The notes beneath the pieces were generated by a model that saw nothing but the letters and a program-made list of their open reading frames with translations, did no database searches and was not told the origin of the DNA. The position numbers and the translations under genes are program-made. 64,000 nt of DNA. Source: an uncultured virus (IMG/VR IMGVR_UViG_3300021256_000060). Lineage: Duplodnaviria > Heunggongvirae > Uroviricota > Caudoviricetes. Below are positions 41-60,628 of the stretch, one piece after another. Every line of letters starts with the position of its first letter. Position 1 is the stretch's first letter. The DNA lies in IMG/VR virus record IMGVR_UViG_3300021256_000060. One strand, written 5' to 3'.

Positions 41-56
41 TCTTATCACATCCTTC

Positions 57-92
57 AAAAATAAATAGGGAGGGAAACTAATCCCTCCCTTA
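57..92 (-). terminator. intrinsic terminator
   Basis: 9-bp stem agggaggga/tccctccct followed by a T-tract on the minus strand, just after the stop at 130. Confidence 0.8.
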
Positions 93-129
93 TATCTATG
101 TGTGAATTTGAATGAATGAAGAAACTTTA

Positions 130-909
130 TCAACCTAATTTGTTAGCTCCACGCTGCATAGCTTGCAACAGCTTGTCGATTACAGTCATAAGAGCATGTC
201 CAGCTTTCTTGATTGCAGAAGCGATCTTAGCATCTTTTTCCCATTTTGCTTTTGTCATCCATTTAGAATAGATCTTGCGCAATGAAGCAATCTTCTTGGC
301 AATAACATTTCTCGGACGATCTTTGAACTTATTATAGATGCCTTTGATTCGATCGATTTCAAATTTACCATTAGCATTAAGGTTATGAATCGGAGCAGTA
401 ACGCCATGAGTCTGGAAAGATTTCTTCATAGCACCAGCACTCCACTTAACATCGTCTTTTATATCCCCGATAATTCCTTCATCAAGAACTGCTTCGAGAA
501 CACTTTCGTCACCAGATTCTAGATAAGCATCTGTTACTGCTTCGCAGAATTGATAGATCATATCATTCTCACTGATAGGAGCTACGACTATATTAGTCAT
601 TTCATGTACCAGAGACGGATCCTCAATAAGATCAGCTTCATTGACTGCAATGGTCATCTTTTCTGCGTCTACACCGCTAGCTTCAGCAACAGCAACTACT
701 GCATCCATATAAGATTCACAATGATCTTCAGCTAATCGAGCAATGTCAGAAAACCGAACCATTGTATAACCTTCGCCAAAACGACTCATTTCACGAACAG
801 GTACAGTTACAGGCTGCATAGCAGATTCATTCTCATCGAGAAACGTTGCTTCAGTAAGCATGGAAATCGGGTCCAGCTTACTCTGCAACTGTGATTCTTT
901 AATAAGCAT
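130..909 (-). CDS. putative internal head protein, paralog family (acidic prodomain + basic amphipathic C-terminus)
   Basis: Start moved to MLIKESQL (GAGGTG SD); prodomain nearly identical to 2420..3283; candidate cleavage site VLDE-G. Confidence 0.6.
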   Translation of the reverse strand: MLIKESQLQSKLDPISMLTEATFLDENESAMQPVTVPVREMSRFGEGYTMVRFSDIARLAEDHCESYMDAVVAVAEASGVDAEKMTIAVNEADLIEDPSLVHEMTNIVVAPISENDMIYQFCEAVTDAYLESGDESVLEAVLDEGIIGDIKDDVKWSAGAMKKSFQTHGVTAPIHNLNANGKFEIDRIKGIYNKFKDRPRNVIAKKIASLRKIYSKWMTKAKWEKDAKIASAIKKAGHALMTVIDKLLQAMQRGANKLG

Positions 910-3312: not shown

Positions 3313-4110
3313 TTAAGCAAACTTGGATTTAATTGTCTTACTAGCCTTCTTCAGCTGCTTAGACAGGAATTCAATAGCCTGTTTGATCTTAGCAATAACT
3401 TTATTGAATACCTTTTTATAGGCAGGTTCGCCTTTGATACGACTAGCCAGCTTGTCAGCCAAGCTACGGAAAGCACTGATCTTCTTAGAGATCCAGTTAG
3501 CAGATTTGCTACCAGCCTGCTTCATTACATTAGCAATCCGGTTACCAATCTCTTCTGCTTTCTTACCAGCTTTACCAGCCTTTTCTTTTACGACTTTAGT
3601 GACTTCAGCTTCGTTAAAGAAAGTATCGAAGTCATCATTTACGAATGCTTCCAACAATGCATCCGTACCTGCCGTATCTCCAGCAGATTCGCCCATGATC
3701 ATATAATCAGTTACGGTTTCTGCCATAATGCTAGCCATGTCGTTCTCGCTAACCGGAACTGCATATACAGTAGCACCGGCTTCGATGAGGCCACGAACAG
3801 TGTCCTCCATATTTACATCTTCCAGTACATGAACCTCATCTACTGAGAAGACTACGGAACTCGGTTGGATATCACTAGCTTCGCAGATCTGTCTCAGAGC
3901 GTAGCCACCATCGCTAATACCATTAGCCATGGAGTATTCCAGAAGATCTTCCAGACGTACTACATTCTTACCCAGACGTGCATTCTCCCGTACCGGAACC
4001 AGTTCAGGATAATAACGGGATTCAGACTCACTCAGATAGCTACTATTTTCCAGCAATTGTAGAGCTTCATCAATTGCGTTAGATTTCATTTGTTCTGCTT
4101 TGATCAGCAT
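3313..4110 (-). CDS. putative internal head protein paralog
   Basis: MLIKAEQ start, VPVREN..LG motif, site FNE-A, Lys-rich amphipathic C-terminus. Confidence 0.6.
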   Translation of the reverse strand: MLIKAEQMKSNAIDEALQLLENSSYLSESESRYYPELVPVRENARLGKNVVRLEDLLEYSMANGISDGGYALRQICEASDIQPSSVVFSVDEVHVLEDVNMEDTVRGLIEAGATVYAVPVSENDMASIMAETVTDYMIMGESAGDTAGTDALLEAFVNDDFDTFFNEAEVTKVVKEKAGKAGKKAEEIGNRIANVMKQAGSKSANWISKKISAFRSLADKLASRIKGEPAYKKVFNKVIAKIKQAIEFLSKQLKKASKTIKSKFA

Positions 4111-4169
4111 GACCTACTCCTCCTTCTTTATAGCATTAACAGCACTTAGCCATTATTTAGATGTATCTC

Positions 4170-4727
4170 TTAACCCTCATCAGCTACTGGCTTTACTTTG
4201 AATACATCAGCATTGGAATCATGCTTGTTAATACCATTGTGGACGGTCTTAGGATCTGGGTCACCACCTGCAGTCTTAGCTGCAAGAATAGAAGGAACGT
4301 TAACTTTGCTGGTTTCTGGATCTTCACCATCACCTACAAAGTTACTGTCACTCTTCTGGAATTGGTTTACTGGAATCTTGTGCAGCAAACCATCTGCTTT
4401 TGCTATACCAGTGGATACACCCTGACCGCAGTTGCAGTTGTCTTTCCCACAGGCACATTCCTCATTCAATTTAAAGAAAGGCATCTTTGCTTCCTCCTTT
4501 ATGTTTTCTTCTTCATTAGAATTGTTATTTCCACGACTTAATTTCTGACGATAGCTTTCCGGTATTTCCCCATTCTTTATGAAGTCTCTAGCTATCCTAT
4601 CCATATTGGATTTGGGTCCTTGGTCTTCATGCCTCTTATCGTACAGTAAACTGGCTATGGTGAACTTACCGTTAGTGGCGCGGTCAATAACGTCCTCCGA
4701 TAAAGAGAATAAGTTTGGGTGTCTCAT
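4170..4727 (-). CDS. hypothetical protein with CxCGxxxCxC motif and internal in-frame start at 4484
   Basis: ORF with GAGG SD; second GGAGG SD before internal MPFFKLNEE. Confidence 0.6.
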   Translation of the reverse strand: MRHPNLFSLSEDVIDRATNGKFTIASLLYDKRHEDQGPKSNMDRIARDFIKNGEIPESYRQKLSRGNNNSNEEENIKEEAKMPFFKLNEECACGKDNCNCGQGVSTGIAKADGLLHKIPVNQFQKSDSNFVGDGEDPETSKVNVPSILAAKTAGGDPDPKTVHNGINKHDSNADVFKVKPVADEG

Positions 4728-4738
4728 ATTATACTACC

Positions 4739-5044
4739 TCATTTCTTAATTAAAGAACCAGTAGTATTCGTAGGACTATTCGGGATTTGTCTTTTTATAA
4801 GAGAAGTCTGCATTTGTTTCTGACCAGCACTAGAAGGATTACCAGCAAACCCTTTAGCTCCTACAGCCTTAGCAAAGTTGTTAACTTTGGTCTGTGCCCT
4901 ATTAGCTGCATTGGTTACTGATCTACCAGCATCTCGTACTCTGTTAACGATTCCGCTTACAGCACTAGATGCATTTCCTAGATTAGTCTGAACACGATTC
5001 TTCACATCATCAAGAAATCCCTCTTGAAAGGTAACGTATCTCAT
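4739..5044 (-). CDS. small basic putative head protein with short propeptide
   Basis: Start moved to MRYVTFQE-GFLD (GAGGG SD); remainder basic. Confidence 0.55.
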   Translation of the reverse strand: MRYVTFQEGFLDDVKNRVQTNLGNASSAVSGIVNRVRDAGRSVTNAANRAQTKVNNFAKAVGAKGFAGNPSSAGQKQMQTSLIKRQIPNSPTNTTGSLIKK

Positions 5045-5057
5045 GATGGTACCCTCA

Positions 5058-5903
5058 TTACATGTAATCATATTTACCGGCAATGATATCTTTGATACGC
5101 TGTACACCAGCCTGATAAGGATCGAGATTAGCAGATTCTTCTACTGCTTCATCTTCGTCTTCTTCCTCATCATCGTCGTCATCCTTTTCTTTGGACTTCT
5201 TAGATTTCTTCTCATCCTTATCGTCGTCCTTATCTTCGCAATCCTTGCATTTCTTATCTTTCTTTTCGGGTTCTTCTTCATGGATTACATCCTGATCTGT
5301 ACCCTTCTTCAGCTCTACATCTTCTTCAGATGCTTGTTTAGCTGCTTCCAGGAACCCTTCCTGCTTGTAGTTCTTCTTTACAAGAGGCAGGCCATATCGA
5401 CCAGTGATAAGATCCAAGAGTTGTTTGGTGTTAGCTACACGACGAATCTTAGCGAAATCTTTCTGATCATTACCGAAAATAGGTTTGCCCAAACCAGGTT
5501 CAGGATTAGCAACACTACCATCAGTATTATGACCTAGGTCTTCCATCTCATCTAAGATTGATGCTTCGTCTACTACGATAGCAACGTCATAGAAACGATC
5601 AGCAACATCGTTAGCTTCCAGTATATTACTAATAGCCGTCTTTACATTGACGACACCATTAGTCAACATATAACGACTGAGATCTTCCATCTCAATCAAA
5701 AGACGACCCAATCGGTCGCTCTGACGAACAACAACCATATCAGGACTAAAACGCATTTCCTGCTCGTTAAGAGAAGGCATATTCGTCAGCATCTGAGCTA
5801 CATCTTCCAAGAGAGTACGATCAGCTGTCTCTGGCAGAGTAAGACCAGACTCATTAATAGCCATTTCGGAAAGGGTCTGTATAGCTGATTTAAACAGTGA
5901 CAT
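5058..5903 (-). CDS. putative head protein paralog with acidic/lysine low-complexity tail
   Basis: VVVRQSDRLG..LIEMEDL and AIVVDE motifs shared with the prodomain; D/E/K-rich C-terminus. Confidence 0.55.
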   Translation of the reverse strand: MSLFKSAIQTLSEMAINESGLTLPETADRTLLEDVAQMLTNMPSLNEQEMRFSPDMVVVRQSDRLGRLLIEMEDLSRYMLTNGVVNVKTAISNILEANDVADRFYDVAIVVDEASILDEMEDLGHNTDGSVANPEPGLGKPIFGNDQKDFAKIRRVANTKQLLDLITGRYGLPLVKKNYKQEGFLEAAKQASEEDVELKKGTDQDVIHEEEPEKKDKKCKDCEDKDDDKDEKKSKKSKEKDDDDDEEEDEDEAVEESANLDPYQAGVQRIKDIIAGKYDYM

Positions 5904-13857: not shown

Positions 13858-13943
13858 TGGTGCGCCCGACAGGAATCGAACCTGCACGTTCTTAAAACAA
13901 TGGATTCTAGGTCCACAGCGTCTGCCTATTTCGCCACGGGCGC
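13858..13943 (-). tRNA. tRNA-Leu (anticodon UAG), encoded CCA, C at position 33
   Basis: cloverleaf GCGCCCG...GTGGA-CCTAGAA-TCCAT, long variable arm, GGTTCGATTCC, A73, CCA. Confidence 0.9.
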
Positions 13944-13949
13944 AAAATA

Positions 13950-14471
13950 TTAAATCCTAAAGTATGGATTATAATAGTTATAATAAGTATTATTATAAAT
14001 AGTACAAGCCACGCCTTTATATCTATCACCAATAGGGATACCTAGTTGATTATATCTAGCTATTCTGCCAGCACATCTTTTACTACAAGTTATAACCCTA
14101 TTTTTGTGCCTATTAAGATCACGATAGTACCAACCCTGTCGTTTAGCAGTCCAAACAAATTCTTTTCCGCAAACATCGCACTTCATGATCTTATCGAAAT
14201 ATTTAGAATTTTCAAGAGCATGTAATCTTATGTGCTCTTCCTTGGTCATCACAATCAAATTAGATGGGTCATTATTCATTGGATTTTCATCTTTATGATG
14301 CACTTCTTCATCATCCCTCAGTTCTCTTCCCAATACTTTTTCCATTATGACTCTAGGATACGATTTAGAAGTATGAGATCCATCAGCTTTATAGAGTGAT
14401 ATTCTACTTCTTCCAGTCTTATCAATATGAATATTATATTCTTCATCTTCCATATAGTACACCATCCTCAT
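13950..14471 (-). CDS. HNH homing endonuclease-like protein
   Basis: EVHHKDENPMNNDPSNLIVMTKEEHIRLH plus CxxCGKEF...CSKRC zinc motif. Confidence 0.85.
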   Translation of the reverse strand: MRMVYYMEDEEYNIHIDKTGRSRISLYKADGSHTSKSYPRVIMEKVLGRELRDDEEVHHKDENPMNNDPSNLIVMTKEEHIRLHALENSKYFDKIMKCDVCGKEFVWTAKRQGWYYRDLNRHKNRVITCSKRCAGRIARYNQLGIPIGDRYKGVACTIYNNTYYNYYNPYFRI

Positions 14472-18289: not shown

Positions 18290-18691
18290 TTATCTCTTTT
18301 CCAATGTTTCTACTCTGTGTTTCAGACTATTAAACGATTCTACATAAGCTTTTCTCAACTGTTCTGATGTCTCTAGATCATCCTTATACAACTTTAACGT
18401 TTCTGAATAATGATTATCTAGTTCTTTGGTATTATCTATGACCTCTCGTAATTCCTTAGCCTCTTTAGATACTATACATAGCTTAATATAGCTTATAGTG
18501 TAAAAGGCTAAAACCATGAGTATTATAAATCTAACTAACTCATAGTTCTCTCCGGCAATATTTTTAAATTCATCTCCAAAGATCACTGTAATAGTGAATG
18601 AGACTAGTATGATATACATTAAGTCGTCTTTATCATAGACCTTAAGTAATATCTCAATCAGACCCTTAGACTTCTTTTTCTCATTATCCAT
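18290..18691 (-). CDS. two-TM membrane protein with C-terminal coiled coil
   Basis: two hydrophobic segments. Confidence 0.6.
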   Translation of the reverse strand: MDNEKKKSKGLIEILLKVYDKDDLMYIILVSFTITVIFGDEFKNIAGENYELVRFIILMVLAFYTISYIKLCIVSKEAKELREVIDNTKELDNHYSETLKLYKDDLETSEQLRKAYVESFNSLKHRVETLEKR

Positions 18692-28569: not shown

Positions 28570-30294
28570 TTATCTATTTGCTGTTAATAACAGCCTCTTT
28601 CTATCTTCGTCACTAATCTTAAAGTCGTTAATGGCCATCTCAGGAACATTGCTATCTTCTAGAACCGGGTTAACCCGTTCTACAATCTGTTTCAGCTTAG
28701 ACCCTTTATTATATTCATTAACGCTGTTAGCTAATCTATCTCTCCATCCAGATGGTTCATGATAATTAGGGTCTACATATCCACCATGAGACAAGCTAAT
28801 GAATGGTACTAATACCGAGCTTGTACCTGGATTAGAAGGAGATGATGTGTTCAAGCAAGATACTCCCAAGCTAGTAGGATGTAAATAACGGTAGATTACA
28901 GGCATAGCTGCGTTACCATTATTCTCGCTTATAGCACTAGGACCATTCTTGCTATATCGTATAGCATTAAAACTATCACAATCAGTTACAGTATCATTGA
29001 AAACTACTATGGATTCTTTTCCCAATTCAGTTAAGAGGTAATCAAATGGGATTATGATTCTCTTCTTGATACTAATAGTATTTACCCGATCACCCATATC
29101 TCCAAGAGTACACATGGCTTTAAAGAGTTTAGGAGCAATCAAGAATGCAGCATATTCCCCAACCCTGAATCTCTTCTGATAAATATCCAGATTAGATTTC
29201 AGAATCAATGCATTATATTCATACATACACCATCTAAGTACTTGATATACATCTTGCATATCATTGTAATCCATTCTAGATATATCTTTAGTAATCAGAT
29301 CATATACCATCTCGAAAGAGCTTAGAACACTAATAGCCTTACTTCTAGGAGTTGCCAAACTATAATGTCTACCTAGGGCTTCCAACCAAGTATCATTACT
29401 ATTTATCCCCTCGTAAGTCATAAACTTACGAGTAGACTCATTAAGAATAGTATTTACTACGTGTTGTAATACATAGTTACTATTAAACAACTGTCTAGGA
29501 ACAGCAACGTAATAGTGGGTTGCATCACTTAATTTAGCAGGCTGGAAGATATAATGATCTTCTGGGAATGGAGGAAGTGTCGGATGAATCCAAATCTGTC
29601 CTCCTAATCCAAGGAACTGAAGACCTCTAGCCAAACCCATCTTTGCAAAGATATATTCACAAGCTGGAAGACTCTTGCTAAAAGTATCACAATCAAAGTG
29701 GACACACTCTACATCCTCATTGGTTATAGTATGTAGGGTATAGATGTTTCTATAGATCTTTATAGGCTGGAAGTTGGTCTTAAATACTACCATAGGATTC
29801 TTGGCATTGCTAGTTTGGTTGTTGTATGTAGATGCATCAACCATCTGAAACATCATTTGACGTTCATTACCATTGAGATTTACATACTGCCCATTAACAA
29901 CCCTAGGAACTGCTAATACAGTTTCTACAATCTCATGTGTATCATATGCCTCTAAGTACATCTCGATGATCAGTATCTTCACATCAGACTCTTTGAGATC
30001 TATGAAGTTGAATCTGTTCTCAGTATTACCTCTAAGTTTGACACTCTTCTTGATAGCAGCCTCTTGGTATTTAGAGAGAATAGCTCTTACTGAATCATAA
30101 TCCTCTATGACCGTAAAGTTACGGATATGAATAGTAAAGTAACTATCCAGTCCCATAGTTTTCTGAATAGAGAGATATAACAACTTGATATTCTCTATTA
30201 TCTCATTCTCATCCCTCTTAAACAGTTCAGGATTGATCTGCAATACATGTTTTGGGTTAGAATTAAACTTTTGGATAAATTGTCCTTGATTCAA
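28570..30294 (-). CDS. multisubunit RNA polymerase beta subunit, N-terminal half (non-virion RNAP)
   Basis: AVPR...LNGNER..FQ and RYLHPTSLGVSCLNTSSPSNPG (cf. RpoB [23 protein letters not shown]). Confidence 0.8.
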   Translation of the reverse strand: MNQGQFIQKFNSNPKHVLQINPELFKRDENEIIENIKLLYLSIQKTMGLDSYFTIHIRNFTVIEDYDSVRAILSKYQEAAIKKSVKLRGNTENRFNFIDLKESDVKILIIEMYLEAYDTHEIVETVLAVPRVVNGQYVNLNGNERQMMFQMVDASTYNNQTSNAKNPMVVFKTNFQPIKIYRNIYTLHTITNEDVECVHFDCDTFSKSLPACEYIFAKMGLARGLQFLGLGGQIWIHPTLPPFPEDHYIFQPAKLSDATHYYVAVPRQLFNSNYVLQHVVNTILNESTRKFMTYEGINSNDTWLEALGRHYSLATPRSKAISVLSSFEMVYDLITKDISRMDYNDMQDVYQVLRWCMYEYNALILKSNLDIYQKRFRVGEYAAFLIAPKLFKAMCTLGDMGDRVNTISIKKRIIIPFDYLLTELGKESIVVFNDTVTDCDSFNAIRYSKNGPSAISENNGNAAMPVIYRYLHPTSLGVSCLNTSSPSNPGTSSVLVPFISLSHGGYVDPNYHEPSGWRDRLANSVNEYNKGSKLKQIVERVNPVLEDSNVPEMAINDFKISDEDRKRLLLTANR

Positions 30295-30306
30295 TTTGCT
30301 TCCCCC

Positions 30307-30969
30307 TTAAATAATAGTAGCTCTCAGTTCTTCTCCTATGGGATTGGCACAACCAGGTTTATCTCTCATAATGAGTTCTACTTCTATATCACTAGCTTCT
30401 GCGATTGCTTTCATCTTACCAAAAGTAATGCTATCAGCAGTAGTGAGAATGCGCATATTGTTAGAATAGTCAGAACCATGACGATGGCGATAACTACTCA
30501 TATCAATATTCTTTTGGTTTAATGCTTTCTTCAACAAAGCGAACTCTGGAGTATCATCAGGTTTGATCATGAACTGAGTTACGTTATCTTTGCATATCAA
30601 TACAGTTCTTTCTGCTGCTTCTAATTGGGCAGTCTTTTGAATCATACCAACTACACCATTAGTATTCTTATTTAGATCAATGATATGGCTTGAAGAATGT
30701 GCCTGTTTATCTTCTGTAGTCTCAGGCTTGGTAAACTTCAATGCTCCACCATAATCTCTTACACCAATAAGAGTAGAGTTTCTTACACCAGCATTTATAA
30801 TAGGATATACATATCCGTTCTTTTCGATAGCAGTATCACTAGCCATGGCTTGCATGGCCTCTGGATTGATACCAGTACGTCTAATATATTCGTCTACAGT
30901 AACAACGTCATACATAGATCTTCCTATGGACATTTTACGCATGGATAATCTCCTTTCTAATATGAGCAA
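30307..30969 (-). CDS. hypothetical protein adjacent to RNAP gene
   Basis: ORF translationally linked to the RNAP subunit gene. Confidence 0.6.
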   Translation of the reverse strand: MLILERRLSMRKMSIGRSMYDVVTVDEYIRRTGINPEAMQAMASDTAIEKNGYVYPIINAGVRNSTLIGVRDYGGALKFTKPETTEDKQAHSSSHIIDLNKNTNGVVGMIQKTAQLEAAERTVLICKDNVTQFMIKPDDTPEFALLKKALNQKNIDMSSYRHRHGSDYSNNMRILTTADSITFGKMKAIAEASDIEVELIMRDKPGCANPIGEELRATII

Positions 30970-51621: not shown

Positions 51622-53046
51622 TTAAAGATTAGGTAGCTTGGTCCCTAAATCAATATCTGGCCCTAGATGGTTATCATTTGGACGGAGCCGAGCATATTTA
51701 AACATCTTGATGTTTCCTAGAGTATTATGCATGTACTCCTTATCAATGTATACCACGAAATGAATTTCTGTAGAGGTTAAAGGTTCAGTAAAGGTTAGCT
51801 TCATATTCTCCCAATCAATAGCTACCTGAATATAATCTACCCAGTTAAATGCCATTATATTAATGAATCTAGATGGAGATATGGCATTGGCTTTAGTGGC
51901 ATCTATAACTTCTCTTAATTCGTTGATGAATATTGGATCTATATCTATAGTTACTGGCTGTTTATTATTGAAGGCCTCCATCTCTTCTTTAGTAGATAAT
52001 TCATATTTAGACCTAAATTCCCAAGGCCATCCATGCTCATCTACTGCAGGAATATTAGCTAGAGTCGTGATACCGAATAAGAATGATTTAGTATCCAATA
52101 CAGTATAGGATTCCAAATGTTCCCTCTGTATTAAAGAGTAGTATGCAAAGAATTTAAGATATGGGAAGAACACCTCACAAGTGAAATTTACTCCAAAATC
52201 ATTGTATATCATATTCCTCTGCTGACCTTGTTGTTTCTGTATTCTAGAGGTTCTGATATGAATTCTGCACCTAGGGATTCTCAAGAAGAATTCCATATTG
52301 CCAGTAGCTTCATTGAACTTATACATCAATGCTAGTTTACTTCTCATATTGAAGTAATGTAGCATATCATTAACCTCATACATACCGTCTTCATTACATA
52401 GACCTGCATCACAAGCTACTTGGCCGATAAGCTCATGAGGTATAGGATAATCTATATCTATATAGTTCTTTTGACTACCTCCTCCTCTAAATGCCATATC
52501 ACATAGAGCAAATACGTCATCTTGAACTGATTTGGTAGATACATGGATATTGAATCCAAACTCCATTCTAACTTCTCCAAAGGCTAGAGATATATAGGTA
52601 TTATGTTCTCGGTCAATAAAAAAAGCATCTCTATAATTACATCTATTATTGTATAAGGTTAGACCCAAATTATATAGGTCTATATTACTACGATTGTATT
52701 CAGTGTCCTCATCTACTGTAATATGAGCAGATGGTTTATTCGTCTTAATCAGTTCTCTCATAGTATATCTCTGAGTCTGATCATGAATGTGAGATAAATC
52801 TAAGTATTTATGCTTAAAGAAATTCTTTGGAAATCTCTTATAAAACCAGTTATTCATATATTGTATAGCTAGGCTGTATGACTGATATAACTGAGCAACT
52901 ATAAGATTAGTTTTGAGTTTATGGTGATTCGTTTTCTTTATATCTATTGGGAGTCCCTTAGTTACTCCAAATCTCTCGAGAACTTCTCGATTAGATAATA
53001 CCTTTACGTATCTTCCTGACTGATGATTTTCCATTTGAATCTTCAC
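51622..53046 (-). CDS. large hypothetical protein, possibly virion structural
   Basis: 474-aa ORF downstream of a late-type promoter (53263-53274). Confidence 0.6.
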   Translation of the reverse strand: MKIQMENHQSGRYVKVLSNREVLERFGVTKGLPIDIKKTNHHKLKTNLIVAQLYQSYSLAIQYMNNWFYKRFPKNFFKHKYLDLSHIHDQTQRYTMRELIKTNKPSAHITVDEDTEYNRSNIDLYNLGLTLYNNRCNYRDAFFIDREHNTYISLAFGEVRMEFGFNIHVSTKSVQDDVFALCDMAFRGGGSQKNYIDIDYPIPHELIGQVACDAGLCNEDGMYEVNDMLHYFNMRSKLALMYKFNEATGNMEFFLRIPRCRIHIRTSRIQKQQGQQRNMIYNDFGVNFTCEVFFPYLKFFAYYSLIQREHLESYTVLDTKSFLFGITTLANIPAVDEHGWPWEFRSKYELSTKEEMEAFNNKQPVTIDIDPIFINELREVIDATKANAISPSRFINIMAFNWVDYIQVAIDWENMKLTFTEPLTSTEIHFVVYIDKEYMHNTLGNIKMFKYARLRPNDNHLGPDIDLGTKLPNL

Positions 53047-53242
53047 ACCTTTCTATACAAGACCGAAGATCTTTATTCTGTTTTTCTAGCTTATCTATTC
53101 TATCTTTCATCTCTTTTGTAACTAATATAAAATGTTCATACTCAGTTTTCAGATGGTTATAACTACCAATCAACCCATTAACTCTCTTATTTAGAAGATC
53201 TATAGTTTGAGCATAGTTAACAAGACTAGGATCATTTACCAT
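52991..53242 (-). CDS. coiled-coil hypothetical protein
   Basis: GGAGG SD before MVND. Confidence 0.55.
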   Translation of the reverse strand: MVNDPSLVNYAQTIDLLNKRVNGLIGSYNHLKTEYEHFILVTKEMKDRIDKLEKQNKDLRSCIERCEDSNGKSSVRKIRKGII

Positions 53243-53326
53243 ATTAATATCCTCCTTTATCTTACAAGAATGTGGTAGAAAGCAAAAAAGAATACCCATC
53301 CAATACAGGATGGGTATTTCATTATT

Positions 53327-53659
53327 TTAACGCTTCATCTCTTCGGCAATATCGATTGTCTTTTCCATACCATCAGCCTTTGCTAAACTGTAGATACGGT
53401 TTCCCTTTACGTTGTAGTACCAATTCTTATACTGAGGGATATACTCAAAAGTATAGAAATCTACAGCTACAGAAGAGCCATTAATAAGTGTATGAATCTC
53501 TGCAGTAAACCATTCATCTCCTCTCCACTTAATAGTGGAATCATCTACTGCCCATTCCATGGATTCAGTAGATTTTACTTCTCTCAGGGCTGCTTCACTA
53601 GTATTATTAATACTGATCAAAGCGATAAGCATAGATACTACTAACATAACCTTTTTCAT
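53327..53659 (-). CDS. secreted protein (signal peptide)
   Basis: MKKVMLVVSMLIAL...SEA; paralog-like to the upstream gene. Confidence 0.65.
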   Translation of the reverse strand: MKKVMLVVSMLIALISINNTSEAALREVKSTESMEWAVDDSTIKWRGDEWFTAEIHTLINGSSVAVDFYTFEYIPQYKNWYYNVKGNRIYSLAKADGMEKTIDIAEEMKR

Positions 53660-53665
53660 TTGTTT

Positions 53666-54022
53666 TTACTCCTTTAAATAACCATATTTTATTAACCAAT
53701 CGACAGCATAAGACTGCCACCAATCAAGATAATCATAGAGAGGTTTTGGTGTATCTTGTCTATTCATAGATACAAACCAATCACCATGTACCTTATAGAA
53801 GATAACAGGGTCAGGATAGGTAACATATTCATTTGCCTTCATATCCTCCATTATTATCTTTACAGCAGCCCAACTCTTCTCATTATTAGTAACTATATTT
53901 TGATCATCTAACCAAAAGGCATAGTTTATATCAGAATACAGATACCAGTGAGTTGCTTCTGCTCCTTTCATAGGGATGAATAAACCGAGGGTAACCAGGA
54001 AAACCAAAAGTATCTTTTTCAT
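53666..54022 (-). CDS. secreted protein (signal peptide)
   Basis: MKKILLVFLVTLGLF...AEA; W..DD..I motif shared with the downstream gene. Confidence 0.65.
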   Translation of the reverse strand: MKKILLVFLVTLGLFIPMKGAEATHWYLYSDINYAFWLDDQNIVTNNEKSWAAVKIIMEDMKANEYVTYPDPVIFYKVHGDWFVSMNRQDTPKPLYDYLDWWQSYAVDWLIKYGYLKE

Positions 54023-54076
54023 TTTTCTTATACCTCCATTCACCTATATAATATATAGTCGAGAGGTTTATAGATA

Positions 54077-54925: not shown

Positions 54926-55285
54926 TCAGAAATGAATATGGATATGAATTTCCTGCTTGTTTTCCTCGATAGGTACGTCGATATCATACTTTTTAAAGAA
55001 TCTGCAGATCTCCTTTGCGCTATCCTCACTAAGACGATAGGGGATAATTCTGGCAATATTCTTGCCTTCGATCTCCATCATCATTTTGTTGATCATTACC
55101 TTGGAATATAATTCATAGTCACGATAAATCGCACTCCGATCGTTATAGACTTTTTCATACTTCTTTTTGAGAAGTGAGAATGCTACCTCAAATTTCTTAC
55201 CAAGCTCTTCTTTCTTTTGAGTCTCAAAAGCCATTTTGCCTGCCACTTCCATAATGCTTCCAAAGATATCTAATGCGTTTGCCAT
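54926..55285 (-). CDS. hypothetical protein (cassette 3)
   Basis: ORF behind the repeated leader. Confidence 0.6.
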   Translation of the reverse strand: MANALDIFGSIMEVAGKMAFETQKKEELGKKFEVAFSLLKKKYEKVYNDRSAIYRDYELYSKVMINKMMMEIEGKNIARIIPYRLSEDSAKEICRFFKKYDIDVPIEENKQEIHIHIHF

Positions 55286-55287
55286 TT

Positions 55288-55336
55288 TAATTATCCCCTT
55301 TCTAAAATGGGGCTAGCAATTATACTAGCCCCTACA
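55288..55336. repeat. 49-bp intergenic direct repeat, copy 1 (hairpin + RBS)
   Basis: taattatcccctttctaaaatggggctagcRattatactagcccctaca; one mismatch to copy 2. Confidence 0.9.
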
Positions 55337-55340
55337 CATA

Positions 55341-55661
55341 TTAACGAGCTGCAGTTTTCTTCATAGCTTCAACACATCCATCTACGGATGCTTTTACTAC
55401 TGGAGCTACAAATGCTTCTAAGAACAGGCTTGCCATTGGGTTTTCTTTTTCCCATTTTGCTAATTCAGCTTTTCTCTTAGCTTCTGCAATTTTGGCCTTT
55501 CTTTTAGCTATTCTTTCTGCCTTTAATCTTGCTTCTCTTTCAGCCTCTTCTGCTTTTTTAGCTTTAGCAGAAAGGTATTTGATAAGAGCAACGAATGGGA
55601 GAAAGATAGCTGCCAGCGCTACAAGCATAACGATAATTTTGATAACGATAGTGGTGAACAT
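55341..55661 (-). CDS. membrane protein with charged helical tail (cassette 2)
   Basis: MFTTI start, N-terminal TM, KAE-rich helix. Confidence 0.65.
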   Translation of the reverse strand: MFTTIVIKIIVMLVALAAIFLPFVALIKYLSAKAKKAEEAEREARLKAERIAKRKAKIAEAKRKAELAKWEKENPMASLFLEAFVAPVVKASVDGCVEAMKKTAAR

Positions 55662-55663
55662 GG

Positions 55664-55712
55664 TAATTATCCCCTTTCTAAAATGGGGCTAGCGATTATA
55701 CTAGCCCCTACA
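55664..55712. repeat. 49-bp intergenic direct repeat, copy 2
   Basis: matches 55288-55336. Confidence 0.9.
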
Positions 55713-55716
55713 GATG

Positions 55717-55884
55717 TTAGTTGATAGACTTTAATGCTCTTCTTGCCGCTACAGCTTTATGCTTTCTAGCAAAATAAGCTTTCTCGGCTTCGTCTGCTTT
55801 TCTCTTCGCATCCTTTTCAATCTTCGTTAAGAAGAAGAACGGAACTCCGAATACTAAAGACAGAATGATAATAGTTGTGAACAT
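55717..55884 (-). CDS. 55-aa membrane protein, paralog of 55341..55661 (cassette 1; absent from ORF track)
   Basis: MFTTIIILSLVFGVPFFFLTKIEKDAKRKA..., AAGGGG SD. Confidence 0.65.
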   Translation of the reverse strand: MFTTIIILSLVFGVPFFFLTKIEKDAKRKADEAEKAYFARKHKAVAARRALKSIN

Positions 55885-56192
55885 GATAAATTACCCCTTT
55901 CTTTTAGGTAACTGATAGAGGATCATAACTATTTTACACATGTATCTATATACATATAACCTCTTATTCACCTCGATAATATACAATTGAAAATATATAC
56001 TTTTACGAAACACAGTCATTTACCATTCAGACAAAAAACGGTTAGAGGGGCATACAAGCCCCTCTTATCAAATATCACCATAATAATATATTAATATTAT
56101 TTTGAAAAATTGCAAAATATTAAGGAGTAGGTCATTATGACCTACTCCCTATGAGTATGATTTTATGGGTAAAACCTTGTGTATATATAAAA

Positions 56193-56736
56193 GAGTTATG
56201 GATTGCGTTAGCTACCTTATACCGGTTATCCTCTGCTTCAAACTAGAATAGCAGTAACCCTCTTCGAGTAGCACGGAATTGTAATAAGGATTTGGTTTAT
56301 CAATTTGGCGGGTTATCAGATTGGGCTCGTTAAAAATACTACCAGGTATAAAAATAGTTTTATCAGGTTATCAGTTTAGGTACGTATATCAATTTAACGA
56401 GTTATCAGTTTAGCCCATTTAAGCATCTTTGTATTTATGTGCTTAATTTGATTGAGGAAATCAATGTGACTCATTGTCCCCATATGTACGCTCAGAGGGA
56501 TTCGAACCCTCGTGATCTTTACGATCGGAAGATTTAAAGTCTTCTGTGTTTAACCACTCCACCACAAGCGTGAACCATTTTGGTTATGTATTAACAGCTT
56601 AGCAAGCTGGTGCAATCCTATTAGTCTTTTCTATTACCAAGAGGTAAGAGCATGTGGCCATAAGACATCTCGATTGCATTAGGAAAAGGCCCTAATTTGA
56701 TTGAGGTTAATTCAGCCTCGTAATCCATAATTACTC
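56193..56736 (-). ncRNA. large structured ncRNA with AAACUGAUAA-type repeats and an embedded tRNA
   Basis: complementary ends (56193-56207 / 56719-56736), many internal helices, six motif copies, terminator-like hairpin at 56125-56149. Confidence 0.6.
56487..56571 (-). tRNA. class II tRNA with UUA anticodon (ochre suppressor-type), no encoded CCA
   Basis: ACGCTTG/TGAGCGT acceptor, GAGTGGTTAAA D-loop, GAAGA-CTTTAAA-TCTTC, long variable arm, GGGTTCGAATCCC, A73. Confidence 0.8.
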
Positions 56737-57014
56737 TAATATATCATTATAGTGTTTCTCAGATACGTATTGGATTTCATCTCTTCGTCTAGTCTCATTC
56801 GCATTGCCTCGATAGCATCATATGCAGTATGTACATTTATCCATGTGTTTAACATACTCTGCAATGACTCTGAGAGAATACGTTCCAATTCACCAGCAAG
56901 TATAGAATCTTTCAGCTTAGGAACGATTTCAACATATAGAGTATGATTTGCTTCATTTATATCTACATAAATATAGTGAAACTCTTCTCTGTATCTGAAT
57001 CTGATGCTATTCAT
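56736..57014 (-). CDS. hypothetical protein
   Basis: ORF between the DIP1984-like gene and the ncRNA. Confidence 0.55.
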   Translation of the reverse strand: MNSIRFRYREEFHYIYVDINEANHTLYVEIVPKLKDSILAGELERILSESLQSMLNTWINVHTAYDAIEAMRMRLDEEMKSNTYLRNTIMIY

Positions 57015-57016
57015 GA

Positions 57017-57748
57017 TTAATAATCAATCTCTACTTTAGTAGAAGCATTGGCCTCACTAATAATAGAGTCGATCCGAACAATGTAATCATTGATTGCATT
57101 GTAGTACTTCTGAATAGCATTGTTGTTGACAAAGTCATGAGGATCGATACGAATGATCTCTACAAGAGCTTCTTCTTTAGCACGTTCCTCATTATATTTA
57201 TCCTGGCTCCAAGACTGTTTGCTGTCAGAGGGGAACTTACGTTCCATCTGATCTGCAACTTCTCTCTTAGCCCGATTCTCGTATTCAGCTCTCTCTTTCA
57301 AATCAGCAGTAAGAGTATTGAGAAGAGCATTAGCGAGACTCTTGAGCGGGTAATCCGTGTTATCGTAGCCAGTTTTGTTGGCGCGACCTTTATAGTTGTT
57401 CTTACGATTAATAGCCTCAGCGATAGTGATTTCTTCTTCTCCTACCTCTTTACCATTAATCAGATCACGGAAGTTAGGTTCACAAGGAACCGTAACCAAT
57501 GTATTGTGATTGGCATGAGTATGTGCCTTCTTGAGAGCGCTCAGTCGAGCCATCAGATCAGTGAATTGCTGGAACTGTTCTTTCTGATGATTGGTCTGTT
57601 CTTCTAGAGAACGAGGACCAACATACTGGCTGTTTTTCAGGCACCAAGTTACAAATCGAAAATCATTTGATTTAATCAGATTAATGATTTGTACCTTTAC
57701 TGATTTTTCCTCTGCCAGAACCTGAGTAAGTGTTAGTTCTTCGTGCAT
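57017..57748 (-). CDS. DIP1984-like helical protein
   Basis: LTxxLAExK start, ANHNTLV, TIAEAI, IDP, IDSIISEANASTKVEI end pattern (family recognised from memory). Confidence 0.55.
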   Translation of the reverse strand: MHEELTLTQVLAEEKSVKVQIINLIKSNDFRFVTWCLKNSQYVGPRSLEEQTNHQKEQFQQFTDLMARLSALKKAHTHANHNTLVTVPCEPNFRDLINGKEVGEEEITIAEAINRKNNYKGRANKTGYDNTDYPLKSLANALLNTLTADLKERAEYENRAKREVADQMERKFPSDSKQSWSQDKYNEERAKEEALVEIIRIDPHDFVNNNAIQKYYNAINDYIVRIDSIISEANASTKVEIDY

Positions 57749-57802
57749 GATTCTACCTCCATTACTTATCAGTTTAGTGTATATTAAAATCTAATTTAGC
57801 CG

Positions 57803-58255
57803 TTAGTTGATAGGCACAATTGATTTCTTAATCAATTCGACTAAACTATCCTTAATATCATCAAATGTACTGTCTTTGTCAGTCAGCTCATAAGTGATAT
57901 TAAACATGTAGTAGGATTTAATCGTACTATCTTGATTTACCTCTACTAAAGGAGTCTTGGTATCATCGTCAACTACCTCAGTGTCATATATAGAGATAAT
58001 TGCTTCAGTGGGATCCTCTTCTTTAACATTGTAGTCACCGACAAATCTAACCTTTTTACCAGTCATCTTTTCTGTAAACTTCTTCCCACTACCGGAAGGA
58101 TTTACATTTCTTTTGCAAACTGTATAGGAATGACCATCTAAGAGAGCCTTGTAGTTAGCGAAAGCTTCAGCATCTTTTAAAGACTCGAAGATAGCGTTAG
58201 GTACAATCTCCCAATAATCTTTATCTCCTACATATACTTCATATATTTCTGTCAT
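57803..58255 (-). CDS. hypothetical protein
   Basis: ORF with SD. Confidence 0.6.
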   Translation of the reverse strand: MTEIYEVYVGDKDYWEIVPNAIFESLKDAEAFANYKALLDGHSYTVCKRNVNPSGSGKKFTEKMTGKKVRFVGDYNVKEEDPTEAIISIYDTEVVDDDTKTPLVEVNQDSTIKSYYMFNITYELTDKDSTFDDIKDSLVELIKKSIVPIN

Positions 58256-58363
58256 GATACATATCCTCCATCCATTATATATTAGTATACATGGTTTTAA
58301 TTTTTAATAAATCAATCACCCCTAGTCATTAGGACTAGGGGCAACTGTTTATTTTAAGATAGA

Positions 58364-60628
58364 TTACTCACACTTACTCCAGCCACAATTACTGCAGGTC
58401 ACACACTTTCCTTCAGGGATAAGTGTTTTCTTCCCGCAATCTGGACACACACGTTTAATAGTATCATCCTCTGTGGGAGTTTCACCAATATCTTGCTTCT
58501 TCATTACCAATTCAATGGCATCAGCTATGGCATTAGAGCAGGAGAGCGATACATCAAGTTCACCATTCCTACGAAGCAGCTGACAAGCAGGACACTGATT
58601 ATTTCTCAGCTCATCCAGTACTCTGGTAAGTTTCACGCCACTACGGAGTGATAGGGAAATCATACGAGTAATAGTATTGATATTAGCTTGACAACCACCA
58701 CTCGCATTAGTGAACACTTCGAAGATATTCCCATCTTCCGTTTTGTTCACTGTCACATACATAGATCTAGCACAGCTAGTACGTACTCGTACAGTAGCAC
58801 CTTCTACGTACTTAGTATTCCTACGACTAGGAGCATCAATACTATCATATGCAGGAACATACCCTTCAGGTACAGATACAAGAGGCTCAGAGGTATCCTC
58901 ATCATCTTTCTTCTTTTCTACACCAAGGATATTACCACGTTCGCATCCATCTACGAATACAGTGATACCTTTAAGACCTTGTTTCCAGGCATCCATGTAA
59001 ATCTCATAGATTTCTTCTTTAGTGGTATCATGCGGAAGGTTAACTGTAGATGATATTGATGCATCCACGTATTCCTGAACGATACCTTGCAAACGTACCC
59101 TCTCAAGATACGGAACATCATGTGATTCTATCAGGAATGGGAATCTCTTCTTAGCCTCTTCTACACTAATACCCTCACAATGGTGGAACCTAAGCAGATC
59201 TTCTACGCCACGTGCATAGACTCTAAAGGTCTTTCCACTATCCTCCATGGAATGGGACGTACGCTCATAAGCGATCTTAAACATAGGTTCAATACCACCA
59301 GTATACTTACCAGCAAACAAACTAATAGTTCCGGTAGGAGCAATAGAAAGAATAGTTCCGTTACGAAGACCATACTTACGAATATCATCATGAAGCTCAG
59401 GATAAGCCTGTATTTGAACAGATTTGAGAGAATAGTCAGCATTGAATTTTTTGAACGGCCCTTTCTTCTTAGCCAATTCGATATCAGTAATGAGAGCCTG
59501 TTTCATGATCTCTTCCATTACGTCACTCATCAAATGACGAGACCCTTCAGAACCGTATCTTATCCCTAATGCTACGAAAGCATCAGCCATACCAAATATA
59601 CCTAAACCAATAGAACGCCAATCATCAATAACCTGCTTATTGAGTTCCAATGGTTGCATATCTCTACCATAGTCCAAGATCTCATCAAGCATACGTACTG
59701 CAAAGTGTACTGTATACTTCAGACGATCATAATTAATGTGAGCGTGGTCGGTAAATTTATCATCGACCATGGCGTACAAATTTATGGAGCCGAGGTTACA
59801 ACTATTTCCGGCGCACGCCCCAAATTCCGCGCACGGATTTGTTGTTTCAATCTTGTATTCAGGATATCCGCTAAGAAGATGGAAGTTATTGATTCTATCA
59901 ATAAACAGGGATCCTGGATCGCCTTTACGCCTTTGACACTCACAGAATTCCATAAAGAATTCTCTTGCATCTATTTCTTTCTCTATTCTAGGAACTACAT
60001 CGTTCTCAAAATGTAGAGTAAACTTCTCATTTTTCTCTACAGCATTCATGAACTCATCTGTGAACTTGATACTGATATTCATAAAAGCCAGTTTCTCATT
60101 CTCTTCCTTAATACGGAGAAATTCAGTGATATCAGGATGCTCACAGGTTAGTGCTACCATAATAGCAGCCCTACGTCCATTTTGGCCTATAACCTGACCT
60201 ACTGTATCAAAGACATTAAGAAATGATACTGCACCGCTACTCTCCATTGCTGAGTTATTTACTTTGGCTCCTTTAGGACGAAGGTTATCAATTGCGATAC
60301 CAGCTCCACCACCATAGGAGAAGATGCGTGCCATGTTTTTAGCAGTATCAAAAATGGCCTCTAGGTTATCTGCAGGAACATTTCCCATTGTATAGCAGTT
60401 TGATAAACTGACTTTTCTCTCTCCTTTATATCCTGCTCCGAACAGTGTACGTCCAGCAGGTAAGAACCATGCCTTATCTAGTAGAGTATATGCATCATCC
60501 TTGATTTCATCACTAAAGATGCTTGCCAGTCTGGGAATGAACTCTTCTGGTTTCTCTCCTTCATGTAGATATTTACGAGTCATGATTCCCATAGAGATTT
60601 CATTGTCATACCATTTCTTTTCACTCAT
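58364..60628 (-). CDS. nrdJ: class II (adenosylcobalamin-dependent) ribonucleotide reductase
   Basis: PAGR, LSNC, GGGAG, RRAA, TNPCAE, CNLGSINL, IAPTGTIS, GIEP, KGITVF, C-terminal TSCPD-like region and CPDC/CSNC ribbon. Confidence 0.92.
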   Translation of the reverse strand: MSEKKWYDNEISMGIMTRKYLHEGEKPEEFIPRLASIFSDEIKDDAYTLLDKAWFLPAGRTLFGAGYKGERKVSLSNCYTMGNVPADNLEAIFDTAKNMARIFSYGGGAGIAIDNLRPKGAKVNNSAMESSGAVSFLNVFDTVGQVIGQNGRRAAIMVALTCEHPDITEFLRIKEENEKLAFMNISIKFTDEFMNAVEKNEKFTLHFENDVVPRIEKEIDAREFFMEFCECQRRKGDPGSLFIDRINNFHLLSGYPEYKIETTNPCAEFGACAGNSCNLGSINLYAMVDDKFTDHAHINYDRLKYTVHFAVRMLDEILDYGRDMQPLELNKQVIDDWRSIGLGIFGMADAFVALGIRYGSEGSRHLMSDVMEEIMKQALITDIELAKKKGPFKKFNADYSLKSVQIQAYPELHDDIRKYGLRNGTILSIAPTGTISLFAGKYTGGIEPMFKIAYERTSHSMEDSGKTFRVYARGVEDLLRFHHCEGISVEEAKKRFPFLIESHDVPYLERVRLQGIVQEYVDASISSTVNLPHDTTKEEIYEIYMDAWKQGLKGITVFVDGCERGNILGVEKKKDDEDTSEPLVSVPEGYVPAYDSIDAPSRRNTKYVEGATVRVRTSCARSMYVTVNKTEDGNIFEVFTNASGGCQANINTITRMISLSLRSGVKLTRVLDELRNNQCPACQLLRRNGELDVSLSCSNAIADAIELVMKKQDIGETPTEDDTIKRVCPDCGKKTLIPEGKCVTCSNCGWSKCE

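Follow-up and report, generated by a model that had tools for sequence, protein, structure and literature searches.

A phage tRNA with a UUA anticodon inside an abundant 547-nt RNA: a possible orphan ochre suppressor in a phage with the standard code

We describe here a transfer RNA (tRNA) with the anticodon UUA, which would read the ochre stop codon UAA. It is encoded at 56487-56571 on the minus strand of a 64,000-nt stretch of DNA from an uncultured tailed phage of ruminant guts (IMG/VR record IMGVR_UViG_3300021256_000060); this whole stretch is called the window throughout. Tentatively, and judging from sequence, we read it as a genuine, transcribed phage tRNA whose anticodon has turned to UUA and which may act as a working but client-less, recently arisen 'orphan' ochre suppressor of leucine or tyrosine type. 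The UUA anticodon is not part of a change in the genetic code. The classical ochre suppressors of Escherichia coli are UUA-anticodon mutants of tRNA-Tyr, tRNA-Lys and tRNA-Gln, and they are weak readers of UAA (and UAG) that are still recognised by their synthetases. As in those mutants, one anticodon substitution would make a sense tRNA a stop reader; however, the E. coli suppressors are laboratory-selected chromosomal mutants, whereas the tRNA considered here is a natural phage allele found in several metagenomes.

UUA tRNAs in standard-code phages are already published, according to the descriptions of three groups of phages (PMC7886860, PMC8386662, PMC12484599). In the alpha group of crAss-like phages a tRNA-Gln is described whose anticodon went from TTG to TTA in just one among several near-identical genomes, TAA not being reassigned, and the authors (Yutin et al. 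2021) read this as the "pre-emergence" of a suppressor (PMC7886860). The present locus resembles that account in that an ochre anticodon arose by point change in one of several near-identical phages with the standard code. It differs in having a class-II body of Leu or Tyr type rather than a Gln body, in a sister without the ancestral sense anticodon (it has C33, GAA and U73), and in the embedding of the tRNA in an RNA of about 547 nt. A tRNA-Sup-TTA is annotated in the Klebsiella jumbo phage phiKp24 (PMC8386662) and a tRNA Sup:UUA in megaphage G (PMC12484599). These too are given as standard-code jumbo phages with a UUA tRNA of unexplained role, but they are bare annotations in cultured phages, the likeness noted here is one of description, and the descriptions consulted mention neither an allelic switch of the anticodon nor an embedding RNA.

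Recoded gut phages are reported to carry amber or opal suppressors together with in-frame TAG or TGA in late genes, the reassignments listed being TAG to Q and TGA to W only (10.1101/2021.08.26.457843). Like them, our phage is a low-GC animal-gut phage with a suppressor tRNA that is presumably charged by the host; unlike them, the codon concerned is TAA, the commonest stop, for which no in-frame use was found in the window. Theta (HDV-like) ribozymes form units with tRNAs in gut phages, and 99.7% of the ribozyme-linked suppressors are given as amber, while the supplementary tRNA-ribozyme pairs of the same report include rows called Sup TTA (PMC10879173). Here, too, a phage tRNA of the Leu or Sup kind that lacks CCA is followed by conserved non-coding RNA, but there is no HDV-like fold near its 3' end. 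Finally, GOLLD and ROOL are described as large phage RNAs, ROOL having first been found in rumen data (10.1101/2024.12.08.627333, PMC5737381). The RNA around our tRNA shares with them that it is an abundant phage non-coding RNA of several hundred nucleotides associated with a tRNA; at 547 nt it is shorter than GOLLD, and it matches no large-RNA family of Rfam at E up to 10.

The tRNA itself can be defined as follows.

56487-56571, minus strand: class-II tRNA (long variable arm) with anticodon UUA, discriminator A73 and no encoded CCA (ARAGORN, Rfam RF00005 at 57 bits, fold)
56535-56537, minus strand: anticodon, with U34, U35 and A36 at 56537, 56536 and 56535, and U33 at 56538 (ARAGORN, Rfam, contigs)

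ARAGORN calls a tRNA-Stop with anticodon (tta) at 56486-56571 on the minus strand, one of two tRNAs in the window. The Rfam model RF00005 matches 56487-56571 on the same strand over its full length (model positions 1-71 of 71) with 57 bits against a gathering score of 29 (E 1.2e-9), as a canonical elongator tRNA does; the length is thus 85 nt by the Rfam span and 86 nt by that of ARAGORN. The acceptor stem (ACGCUUG/UGAGCGU) includes A1-U72, U6.G67 and G7.U66. It is followed by U8, a D stem of three pairs plus G13.A22, and a D loop with G18 and G19. The anticodon stem (GAAGA/UCUUC) has five perfect pairs and closes the loop C-U-UUA-A-A (CUUUAAA), in which A37 is 56534. The variable arm, GAUC-GUAAA-GAUC, has a 4-bp stem and a 5-nt loop, and the T arm, GAGGG-UUCGAAU-CCCUC, is canonical. 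The discriminator A73 is 56487, and CAU follows it where CCA could have been encoded. The cloverleaf arms are recovered in a single-sequence fold, and all the canonical positions that we inspected are in place (7-nt anticodon loop, U33, a purine at 37, U8, A14, G18G19, the UUCGAAU T loop, G53-C61). Hence, the window allele keeps the features needed for decoding: U33, A36-A37-A38, G18 and G19, the T loop UUCGAAU, and A73. The initial annotation, made from the letters alone, had described this structure correctly in every detail, as ARAGORN, Rfam and our own minus-strand reading agree, and its call of a stop-reading tRNA is the one that ARAGORN makes.

That annotation had also singled out base 56535 as one to be verified in sequencing data. 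This base is A36, and it is unchanged in contigs from three further runs, X3 and X4 (RNA, two studies) and X12 (DNA, a third study); the bases that differ in the closest relative are 56536-56538. The UUA anticodon, A73 and the whole tRNA body are the same in all three (X3 and X4 depart from it at 56549 only), and no alternative letter occurs at the anticodon. Since the same anticodon appears in the contigs of three further runs from three studies, a sequencing error is ruled out. Megablast of 55000-58500 against phage records gave no match, nor did the tRNA match E. coli genomes.

The closest record to the window is a 266,420-bp IMG/VR contig rated 100% complete (L001, identical with G001, hereafter the relative), which means that the window belongs to a jumbo phage of about 266 kb and covers roughly one quarter of its genome. 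The two are collinear: from about 2.8 kb onward all long blocks have 89.6-97.6% identity, and the only matches to the first ~2.8 kb of the window are short and more divergent (66-84% identity); overall, mismatches make up 4.0% of the 60,030 aligned columns. All long open reading frames (ORFs) of the window are on the minus strand, and PHROG matches include split RNA polymerase beta subunits, ribonucleotide reductase (RNR), topoisomerase II, an NAD-dependent ligase, a UvsX-like recombinase, an SbcC-like protein and an endolysin.

Does this phage read TAA as anything but a stop? We chose 92 minus-strand ORFs greedily, which together make up 90.7% of the window. They end in TAA 56 times, in TGA 25 times and in TAG 11 times, and TAA is the commonest stop in the relative as well. 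Reading TAA as sense brings no gain in coverage of the window (89.8% either way) and raises that of the complete relative from 90.5% to 92.6% (+2.1 points), each 20-kb bin of the relative being 84-99% coding under code 11. Recoded phages would show in-frame use of the stop and a gain of 5-10% in coding density when it is read as sense; neither is seen here. Stop codons are identical between window and relative in 84 of the 92 ORFs; the shifts among stops include two TGA in the window against TAA in the relative and one TAA against TAG. The sole case of TAA against a sense codon is the stop of ORF 18290-18691, which is AAA in the relative; a further stop comes 5 codons on. Where tblastn alignments contain stops, these belong to weak paralogous matches or to the non-coding heads of frames taken from stop to stop. 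From the coverage, the unsplit genes and the shared stops it follows that the phage uses the standard code, with no recoding and no identified client gene in the window. Global or local recoding of TAA is rejected for the window and for the whole genome of the relative, in line with the earlier statement that the genome is not globally recoded. We can likewise reject a suppressor that compensates for a nonsense mutation: in no window gene does an in-frame TAA face a sense codon of the relative.

In-frame extensions of at least 50 codons follow 9 of the 56 TAA-terminated ORFs and 2 of the 36 that end in TAG or TGA. We considered them as read-through products and rejected this, for each of those after TAA is simply the following gene, which shares the frame, and the relative, which has no suppressor, keeps the TAA. 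Thus the conserved in-frame extensions after TAA that the initial annotation had proposed to look for were not found in the 64 kb. Two arrangements in the window are of this general kind. At 28570-30969 (minus strand) a 220-aa ORF and a 574-aa polymerase-like ORF share one frame with a single TAA between them, and at 52991-54043 (minus strand) there is a chain of three ORFs of ~110 aa in one frame, separated by TAA. Since the relative shares these TAA stops and has no suppressor, they are ordinary ones. Only two tRNAs are encoded in the whole genome of the relative, and searches of it for an RF-1 domain (release factor), PolyA_pol (CCA-adding enzyme) and tRNA-synt_1b (TyrRS/TrpRS) found none.

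Under the reading we favour, the 547-nt RNA would be transcribed first, after which host RNase P would cut at 56572/56571 and RNase Z just after A73, the lack of an encoded CCA making the tRNA a likely RNase Z substrate. The CCA would then be added by a host enzyme, and a host synthetase, LeuRS or TyrRS, would charge the product. LeuRS ignores the anticodon and needs A73; TyrRS needs A73 and U35. The outcome would be low-level insertion of Leu or Tyr at UAA. As the next in-frame stop is usually within a few codons, read-through would mostly add short C-terminal tails, and it should be tolerable: in 37 of the 56 TAA-terminated ORFs a further in-frame stop comes within 10 codons. Each of the three roles proposed in the initial annotation (regulated read-through, disruption of host termination, decoy or processing module) may apply, and our results do not tell them apart.

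Which amino acid the tRNA would carry is less easy to judge, and the ambiguity noted in the initial annotation is borne out by conflicting Leu-type and Tyr-type features. Several lines point to leucine. Among the 60 matches listed, out of 255 matching phage records, 40 are annotated as tRNA-Leu, which makes this the nearest annotated isotype among those listed; the rest are Tyr (1), Ser (1), Glu (2), Asp (1), Thr (1) and unannotated or other (14). The anticodon arm and position 26 equal those of the phage Leu(UAA) tRNAs of SonariX, Carin-5 and phiKZ except at position 35 (A35 to U), the variable arm aligns with that of the Carin-5 Leu tRNA, and the acceptor stem differs from that of the window's own Leu(UAG) by transitions only. 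A long variable arm and discriminator A73 are the rule for bacterial tRNA-Leu, and both are present. The D loop tells otherwise: a Leu-type tRNA has the Levitt pair A15-U48 and four bases before G18G19, as all five aligned Leu tRNAs do, whereas ours has three bases there, and G15 and C48 in place of the pair. An annotated tRNA-Tyr, that of Salmonella phage SA002, has exactly the same D loop, GAGUGGUUAAA. Together with G15 and C48, this loop also closely resembles that of a phage tRNA-Ser and recurs unchanged in a Ser-type (G73) tRNA of a metagenome-assembled genome (MAG), but the G73 needed for Ser is missing here. For tyrosine, A73, the long variable arm, U35 and a D loop of the form A14-G15-Y16-G18-G19 all fit. 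tRNA-Tyr further requires G34 and a G1-C72 first pair, in place of which we find U34 and A1-U72. Our estimate from these sequence features is that leucine is a tentative first choice, that tyrosine has a somewhat smaller but serious chance, and that another amino acid or no charging at all is unlikely. Mistranslating anticodon variants of tRNA-Leu, tRNA-Ala and tRNA-Ser are described for yeast and mammalian cells (PMC11028032). Since the anticodon plays no part in recognition by LeuRS, a Leu body that has acquired a foreign one would still be expected to receive Leu. In the present tRNA, charging is a prediction, and the D loop is not of the type seen in the phage Leu tRNAs compared.

A search of bacterial genomes for the D-arm pattern gave five loci, one of which is a tRNA, the Ser-type one just mentioned. 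It lies at 55-146 (minus strand) of a contig of a Verrucomicrobiales MAG (L081) and is a 92-nt class-II tRNA with G73, a Ser-type body and the same D arm as the UUA tRNA. Its anticodon is UAU, and ARAGORN calls it Ile; it is another long-arm tRNA with an anticodon unfit for its body.

The second tRNA of the window, Leu(UAG) at 13858-13943 (minus strand), has C33 (loop CCUAGAA) and an encoded CCA. It reads CUA, and CTA (15.2 per mille) is, after TTA (19.8 per mille), the commonest Leu codon of the phage, which is a further point in favour of leucine for the UUA tRNA. In its acceptor stem and 3' flank this Leu(UAG) agrees with that of the relative, and its D, anticodon, variable and T arms are widely different. 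Directly upstream is an ORF for an HNH endonuclease (13950-14471, minus strand) that is absent from the relative (571 nt against 204 nt). It appears that part of a tRNA gene was replaced here in connection with a homing endonuclease.

The UUA tRNA is not transcribed in isolation. A word search with the 901-nt query 56100-57000 found 20 runs from 10 studies, 13 of which are animal-gut metatranscriptomes. These 13 RNA runs contain 0.38-0.60 of the query words, and 547/901 is 0.61. We aligned contigs from four runs to the window, with the result given in the last four of the following lines.

56180-56727, minus strand: discrete transcript of ~547 nt containing the tRNA, running from 56727 to 56180 (RNA-run contigs, fold)
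56572-56727, minus strand: 5' leader; 56604-56727 is invariant against the relative, and 56572-56603 has 5 differences, shared by the X12 and X15 contigs
56180-56486, minus strand: 3' trailer of 307 nt, identical to the relative throughout (repeat families D1 and D3)
56693-56706, no strand: leader copy of a 14-nt exact direct repeat (family D5), the two copies of which flank the tRNA
56444-56457, no strand: trailer copy of the same 14-nt exact direct repeat
56121-56151, minus strand: terminator-like hairpin ~30 nt past the 3' end of the RNA contigs
56549, minus strand: A22 of the tRNA, G in RNA contigs and A in DNA sources (contigs, L001, L007)
X3, RNA: one contig, 56179-56727, with one difference from the window, at 56549
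X4, RNA: one contig, 56181-56726, with one difference from the window, at 56549
X15, RNA: contigs 56181-56486, with a difference at 56273, and 56568-56725, with the relative's five upstream variants
X12, DNA: contig 56226-56787, with the relative's five upstream variants and a difference at 56753, its tRNA being the same as the window's

In all three RNA runs aligned, the contigs are confined to 56179-56727, with no cover of 55600-56160 or 56773-57100. As neither flank is covered, carry-over of DNA is unlikely, and the 547-nt RNA is better represented than the flanking mRNAs. The outer ends of the RNA contigs agree within 2 nt across three studies, and the 3' end coincides with a drop in conservation. 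The suggestion of the initial annotation that the tRNA lies inside a larger RNA thus holds. The RNA folds with a minimum free energy of -126.8 kcal/mol (z -2.26) and with its ends paired. Its trailer includes repeated units containing CTGATAAC and AAATTGATA (families D1 and D3 in our repeat list), and a second terminator-like hairpin lies at 56065-56044. The UUA allele is present in at least four data sets (the window, X3, X4 and X12) and on two upstream backgrounds, given that X12 joins the UUA tRNA to the relative's five upstream variants.

We regard 56180-56727 as a candidate new large phage non-coding RNA. A search of 55300-57100 with Rfam on both strands, at E up to 10, gave no GOLLD, ROOL, HDV-family or other non-tRNA match; the assignment of the flanks of the tRNA to GOLLD, ROOL or any other Rfam family, which would rest on a match to its covariance model, is therefore rejected. 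A theta ribozyme would place an HDV-like cleavage site within 5 nt on either side of the tRNA 3' end (56486), and a scan with a simplified descriptor, in place of RNArobo with the published descriptor, found no HDV-like nested double pseudoknot there. Its three hits, two at 56317 and one at 56274, are at chance level (shuffled sequences had a mean of 1.7 and a maximum of 17). On the strength of the Rfam search and the scan a theta or HDV-like ribozyme after the tRNA is rejected as well.

Two further observations concern the DNA just beyond the 3' end of this RNA. The window has ~200 extra bases against the relative at 55679-55873, with a 55-aa ORF at 55717-55884. They are bounded by a 32-nt direct repeat of 84% identity (55648-55679 and 55871-55902) that covers the ribosome-binding site and start of the next gene, and they look like a local duplication. 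The ~130 nt at 55881-56007, upstream of the small ORF, recur in the relative at 187797-187922 (91%) and, on the other strand, at 60345-60479 (83%), and may be a repeated regulatory element.

One base of the tRNA differs between RNA and DNA. At 56549 the RNA contigs of X3 and X4 have C for T on the plus strand at full depth, that is G for A22, while all four DNA sources (the window, X12, L001 and a second assembly of the locus, L007) have A22. The fraction of the window's words found in X2, a run of the sample that also gave X3, is 1.00. Possibly the difference reflects m1A22 made by TrmK, or another change at the RNA level. TrmK is typical of Bacillota, and m1A22 would point to a TrmK-bearing host. 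The enzyme is described as acting on A22 opposite a purine at position 13 in Leu, Ser and Tyr tRNAs, ignoring the anticodon loop and requiring the D stem, the T loop and the stem of the variable arm besides U8 and G18/G19, and its product as yielding high mismatch rates in reverse transcription (PMC9801127). The UUA tRNA offers this context, with G13.A22, U8, G18G19 and a variable-arm stem. The A22 signal suggests that the cell handles the RNA as a tRNA.

At the same site the relative, and likewise L007, has a gene that is called tRNA-Phe(gaa). Its loop is CCGAAAA (C33, anticodon GAA) and its discriminator U73, against CUUUAAA and A73 in the window. In the 85 nt of the tRNA there are five differences between the two: 56538, 56537 and 56536 (positions 33-35, U33 U34 U35 in the window and C33 G34 A35 in the relative), the variable-loop base 56521 and the discriminator 56487. 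No stem, D-loop or T-loop position differs. The relative's tRNA scores 49.9 bits, against 57 for the window copy, and by its C33 lacks the canonical U33. The window allele is one substitution away from a sense anticodon (Leu UAA via A35U, Tyr GUA via G34U); that of the relative is two substitutions away, in addition to U73. The initial annotation had considered that relatives might carry a sense anticodon while the present copy decays. Indeed the relative has GAA, but the oddities, C33 and U73, sit in the relative's copy, and the window copy is intact.

Around the tRNA, conservation is very uneven. The 32 nt just upstream (56572-56603) hold five differences from the relative, the next 124 nt (56604-56727) none, and the 307 nt downstream (56180-56486) none, so that the outer 431 nt of the RNA are 100% identical against a background mismatch of 4.0%. 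Beyond 56180 identity falls to 92%, and neighbouring ORFs are 85-99% identical. Runs of at least three mismatches number 53 in the 60,030 aligned columns; the other 52 are mostly in divergent patches, and the anticodon change is the only isolated run of three within this conserved stretch. Further homologues are scarce. The anticodon-arm pattern found only the same relative among viral contigs and nothing among genome contigs, the trailer motif gave 15 loci with only the relative's homologous, and the repeat-pair pattern found only the relative. Of 48 metagenome loci anchored on RNR, L007 alone (87% RNR identity) carries the tRNA, and its allele is GAA. A more distant relative, L051 (RNR 64% identical), has in its stretches 1-2780 and 4109-5190 an RNR frame broken into three ORFs and, following it, four tRNAs, including 77-nt Leu(tag) and Leu(taa) calls without a long variable arm.

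Several of our results weigh against a working orphan suppressor. Decoding function is not conserved at the locus, as the closest relative has C33-GAA and U73 there, and all five differences fall on unpaired positions, as a constraint on structure alone predicts. The isotype signals conflict, and the D loop and Levitt pair disagree with the Leu option in particular; the acceptor stem is weak (A1-U72 and two G.U pairs). Nothing in the genes of the window appears to depend on suppression: tblastn against the relative's orthologues found no TAA-split gene in the window, the suppressor-less relative likewise has TAA at 51 of the 56 TAA stops, and the 92 stops compared with it give no signal of a shift in usage away from TAA. 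The contigs cannot show RNA ends, CCA tails or charging, so that a mature, charged tRNA was not observed, and the A22 difference could be a strain allele.

The same facts raise the possibility that the tRNA is not used in decoding and belongs to the larger conserved RNA as a tRNA-shaped module or as its cargo, only the tRNA fold being selected and the UUA incidental. It might then signal processing by RNase P/Z, or act structurally or as a linker, with the anticodon loop, variable loop and discriminator free to change. This would agree with the contrast between the unchanged outer 431 nt and the ten differences split evenly between the tRNA and the 32 nt before it, with the untouched stems, and with the X15 contigs, which end at the tRNA borders (56486 and 56568). 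The relative's class-II body with C33, U73 and a Phe anticodon is also hard to square with normal decoding. tRNAs are described as occasionally found in the linker of GOLLD (10.1101/2024.12.08.627333), and a pseudo-tRNA of B. cereus is given as non-functional in translation (PMC3399842). This is the main rival and a serious one, but we still find it somewhat unlikely. The window allele retains all its decoding features, and does so on two backgrounds; three adjacent substitutions at positions 33-35 are improbable under drift; and no kissing partner that co-varies with the anticodon change (TTT to CGA or similar), sought in the window, was found to compensate for it. Nor has the RNA any match in Rfam to a large-RNA family, and its scaffold fold is a prediction, no distant homologue having been found.

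A bolder version, which we think unlikely, is that the tRNA would be exchangeable cargo of an undescribed, highly abundant phage scaffold RNA, and that the switch of anticodon and discriminator would be a selected re-targeting, not drift. The invariant 124-nt 5' domain and the 307-nt 3' domain are predicted to pair together, which would make the scaffold GOLLD-like in logic and unrelated in sequence. The coupled switch between UUA with A73 and C33-GAA with U73 would then alter the action of the cargo, be it stop read-through, mistranslation or defence evasion.

Evasion could also operate by itself, the anticodon loop and position 73 diversifying against host nucleases or toxins, with UUA and C33-GAA as escape or decoy variants. 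That the differences gather in the anticodon loop and discriminator while the fold stays intact would suit such a role, C33 occurs in the window's Leu(UAG) tRNA as well, and phage tRNAs with anticodon-loop changes are reported to evade tRNA-targeting defences (PMC10264068, PMC11555353). In the cases described there, however, the triplet is kept, so as to replace a depleted host tRNA, whereas here it becomes stop-reading or Phe-reading. With no nuclease or defence context identified and only two alleles known, we consider a counter-defence element improbable. To about the same degree we doubt that this is a dispensable tRNA gene in early decay, in which both lineages carry neutral or slightly harmful anticodon mutations. 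It is true that neither lineage has a sense anticodon that fits the body and that no dependent gene was found in the window; but neither allele has a substitution in the stems, D loop or T loop, four data sets, with two backgrounds among them, have one and the same UUA allele, and no RNA of the region is better conserved or more highly represented than the one in which the gene sits. A T-box decoy was weighed, the anticodon and discriminator being the two T-box contacts, and was dropped: GAA with U73 misfits a Phe T-box, and UAA is not known as a T-box specifier. Real TAA reassignment or programmed TAA read-through in genes outside the window is very improbable, although the window is only about a quarter of the genome and recoded phages are described as concentrating in-frame stops in late and lysis genes (10.1101/2021.08.26.457843), because the complete, collinear relative is so fully coding under code 11 (90.5%, bins 0.84-0.99, +2.1 points) without a suppressor tRNA, because TAA is the commonest stop in both, and because no case of TAA recoding is reported from large phage surveys (PMC13037316, 10.1101/2021.08.26.457843).

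Given that UUA tRNAs in standard-code phages were described before, the novelty of our finding lies elsewhere: in the paired switch of anticodon and discriminator between near-identical phages, in the embedding of the tRNA in an invariant, abundant 547-nt RNA, and in a possible modification mark at A22. Orphan ochre suppressors recur in standard-code phages. The present locus provides an unusually clean natural comparison, since the two phages are ~96% identical and the differences at this tRNA are confined to the anticodon loop, a single base of the variable loop and the discriminator. The question it poses is whether such a tRNA is a working suppressor, a first step to recoding or a tRNA-shaped part of a larger RNA, and the evidence of transcription from several metatranscriptome studies, together with a defined embedding RNA, makes this question testable.

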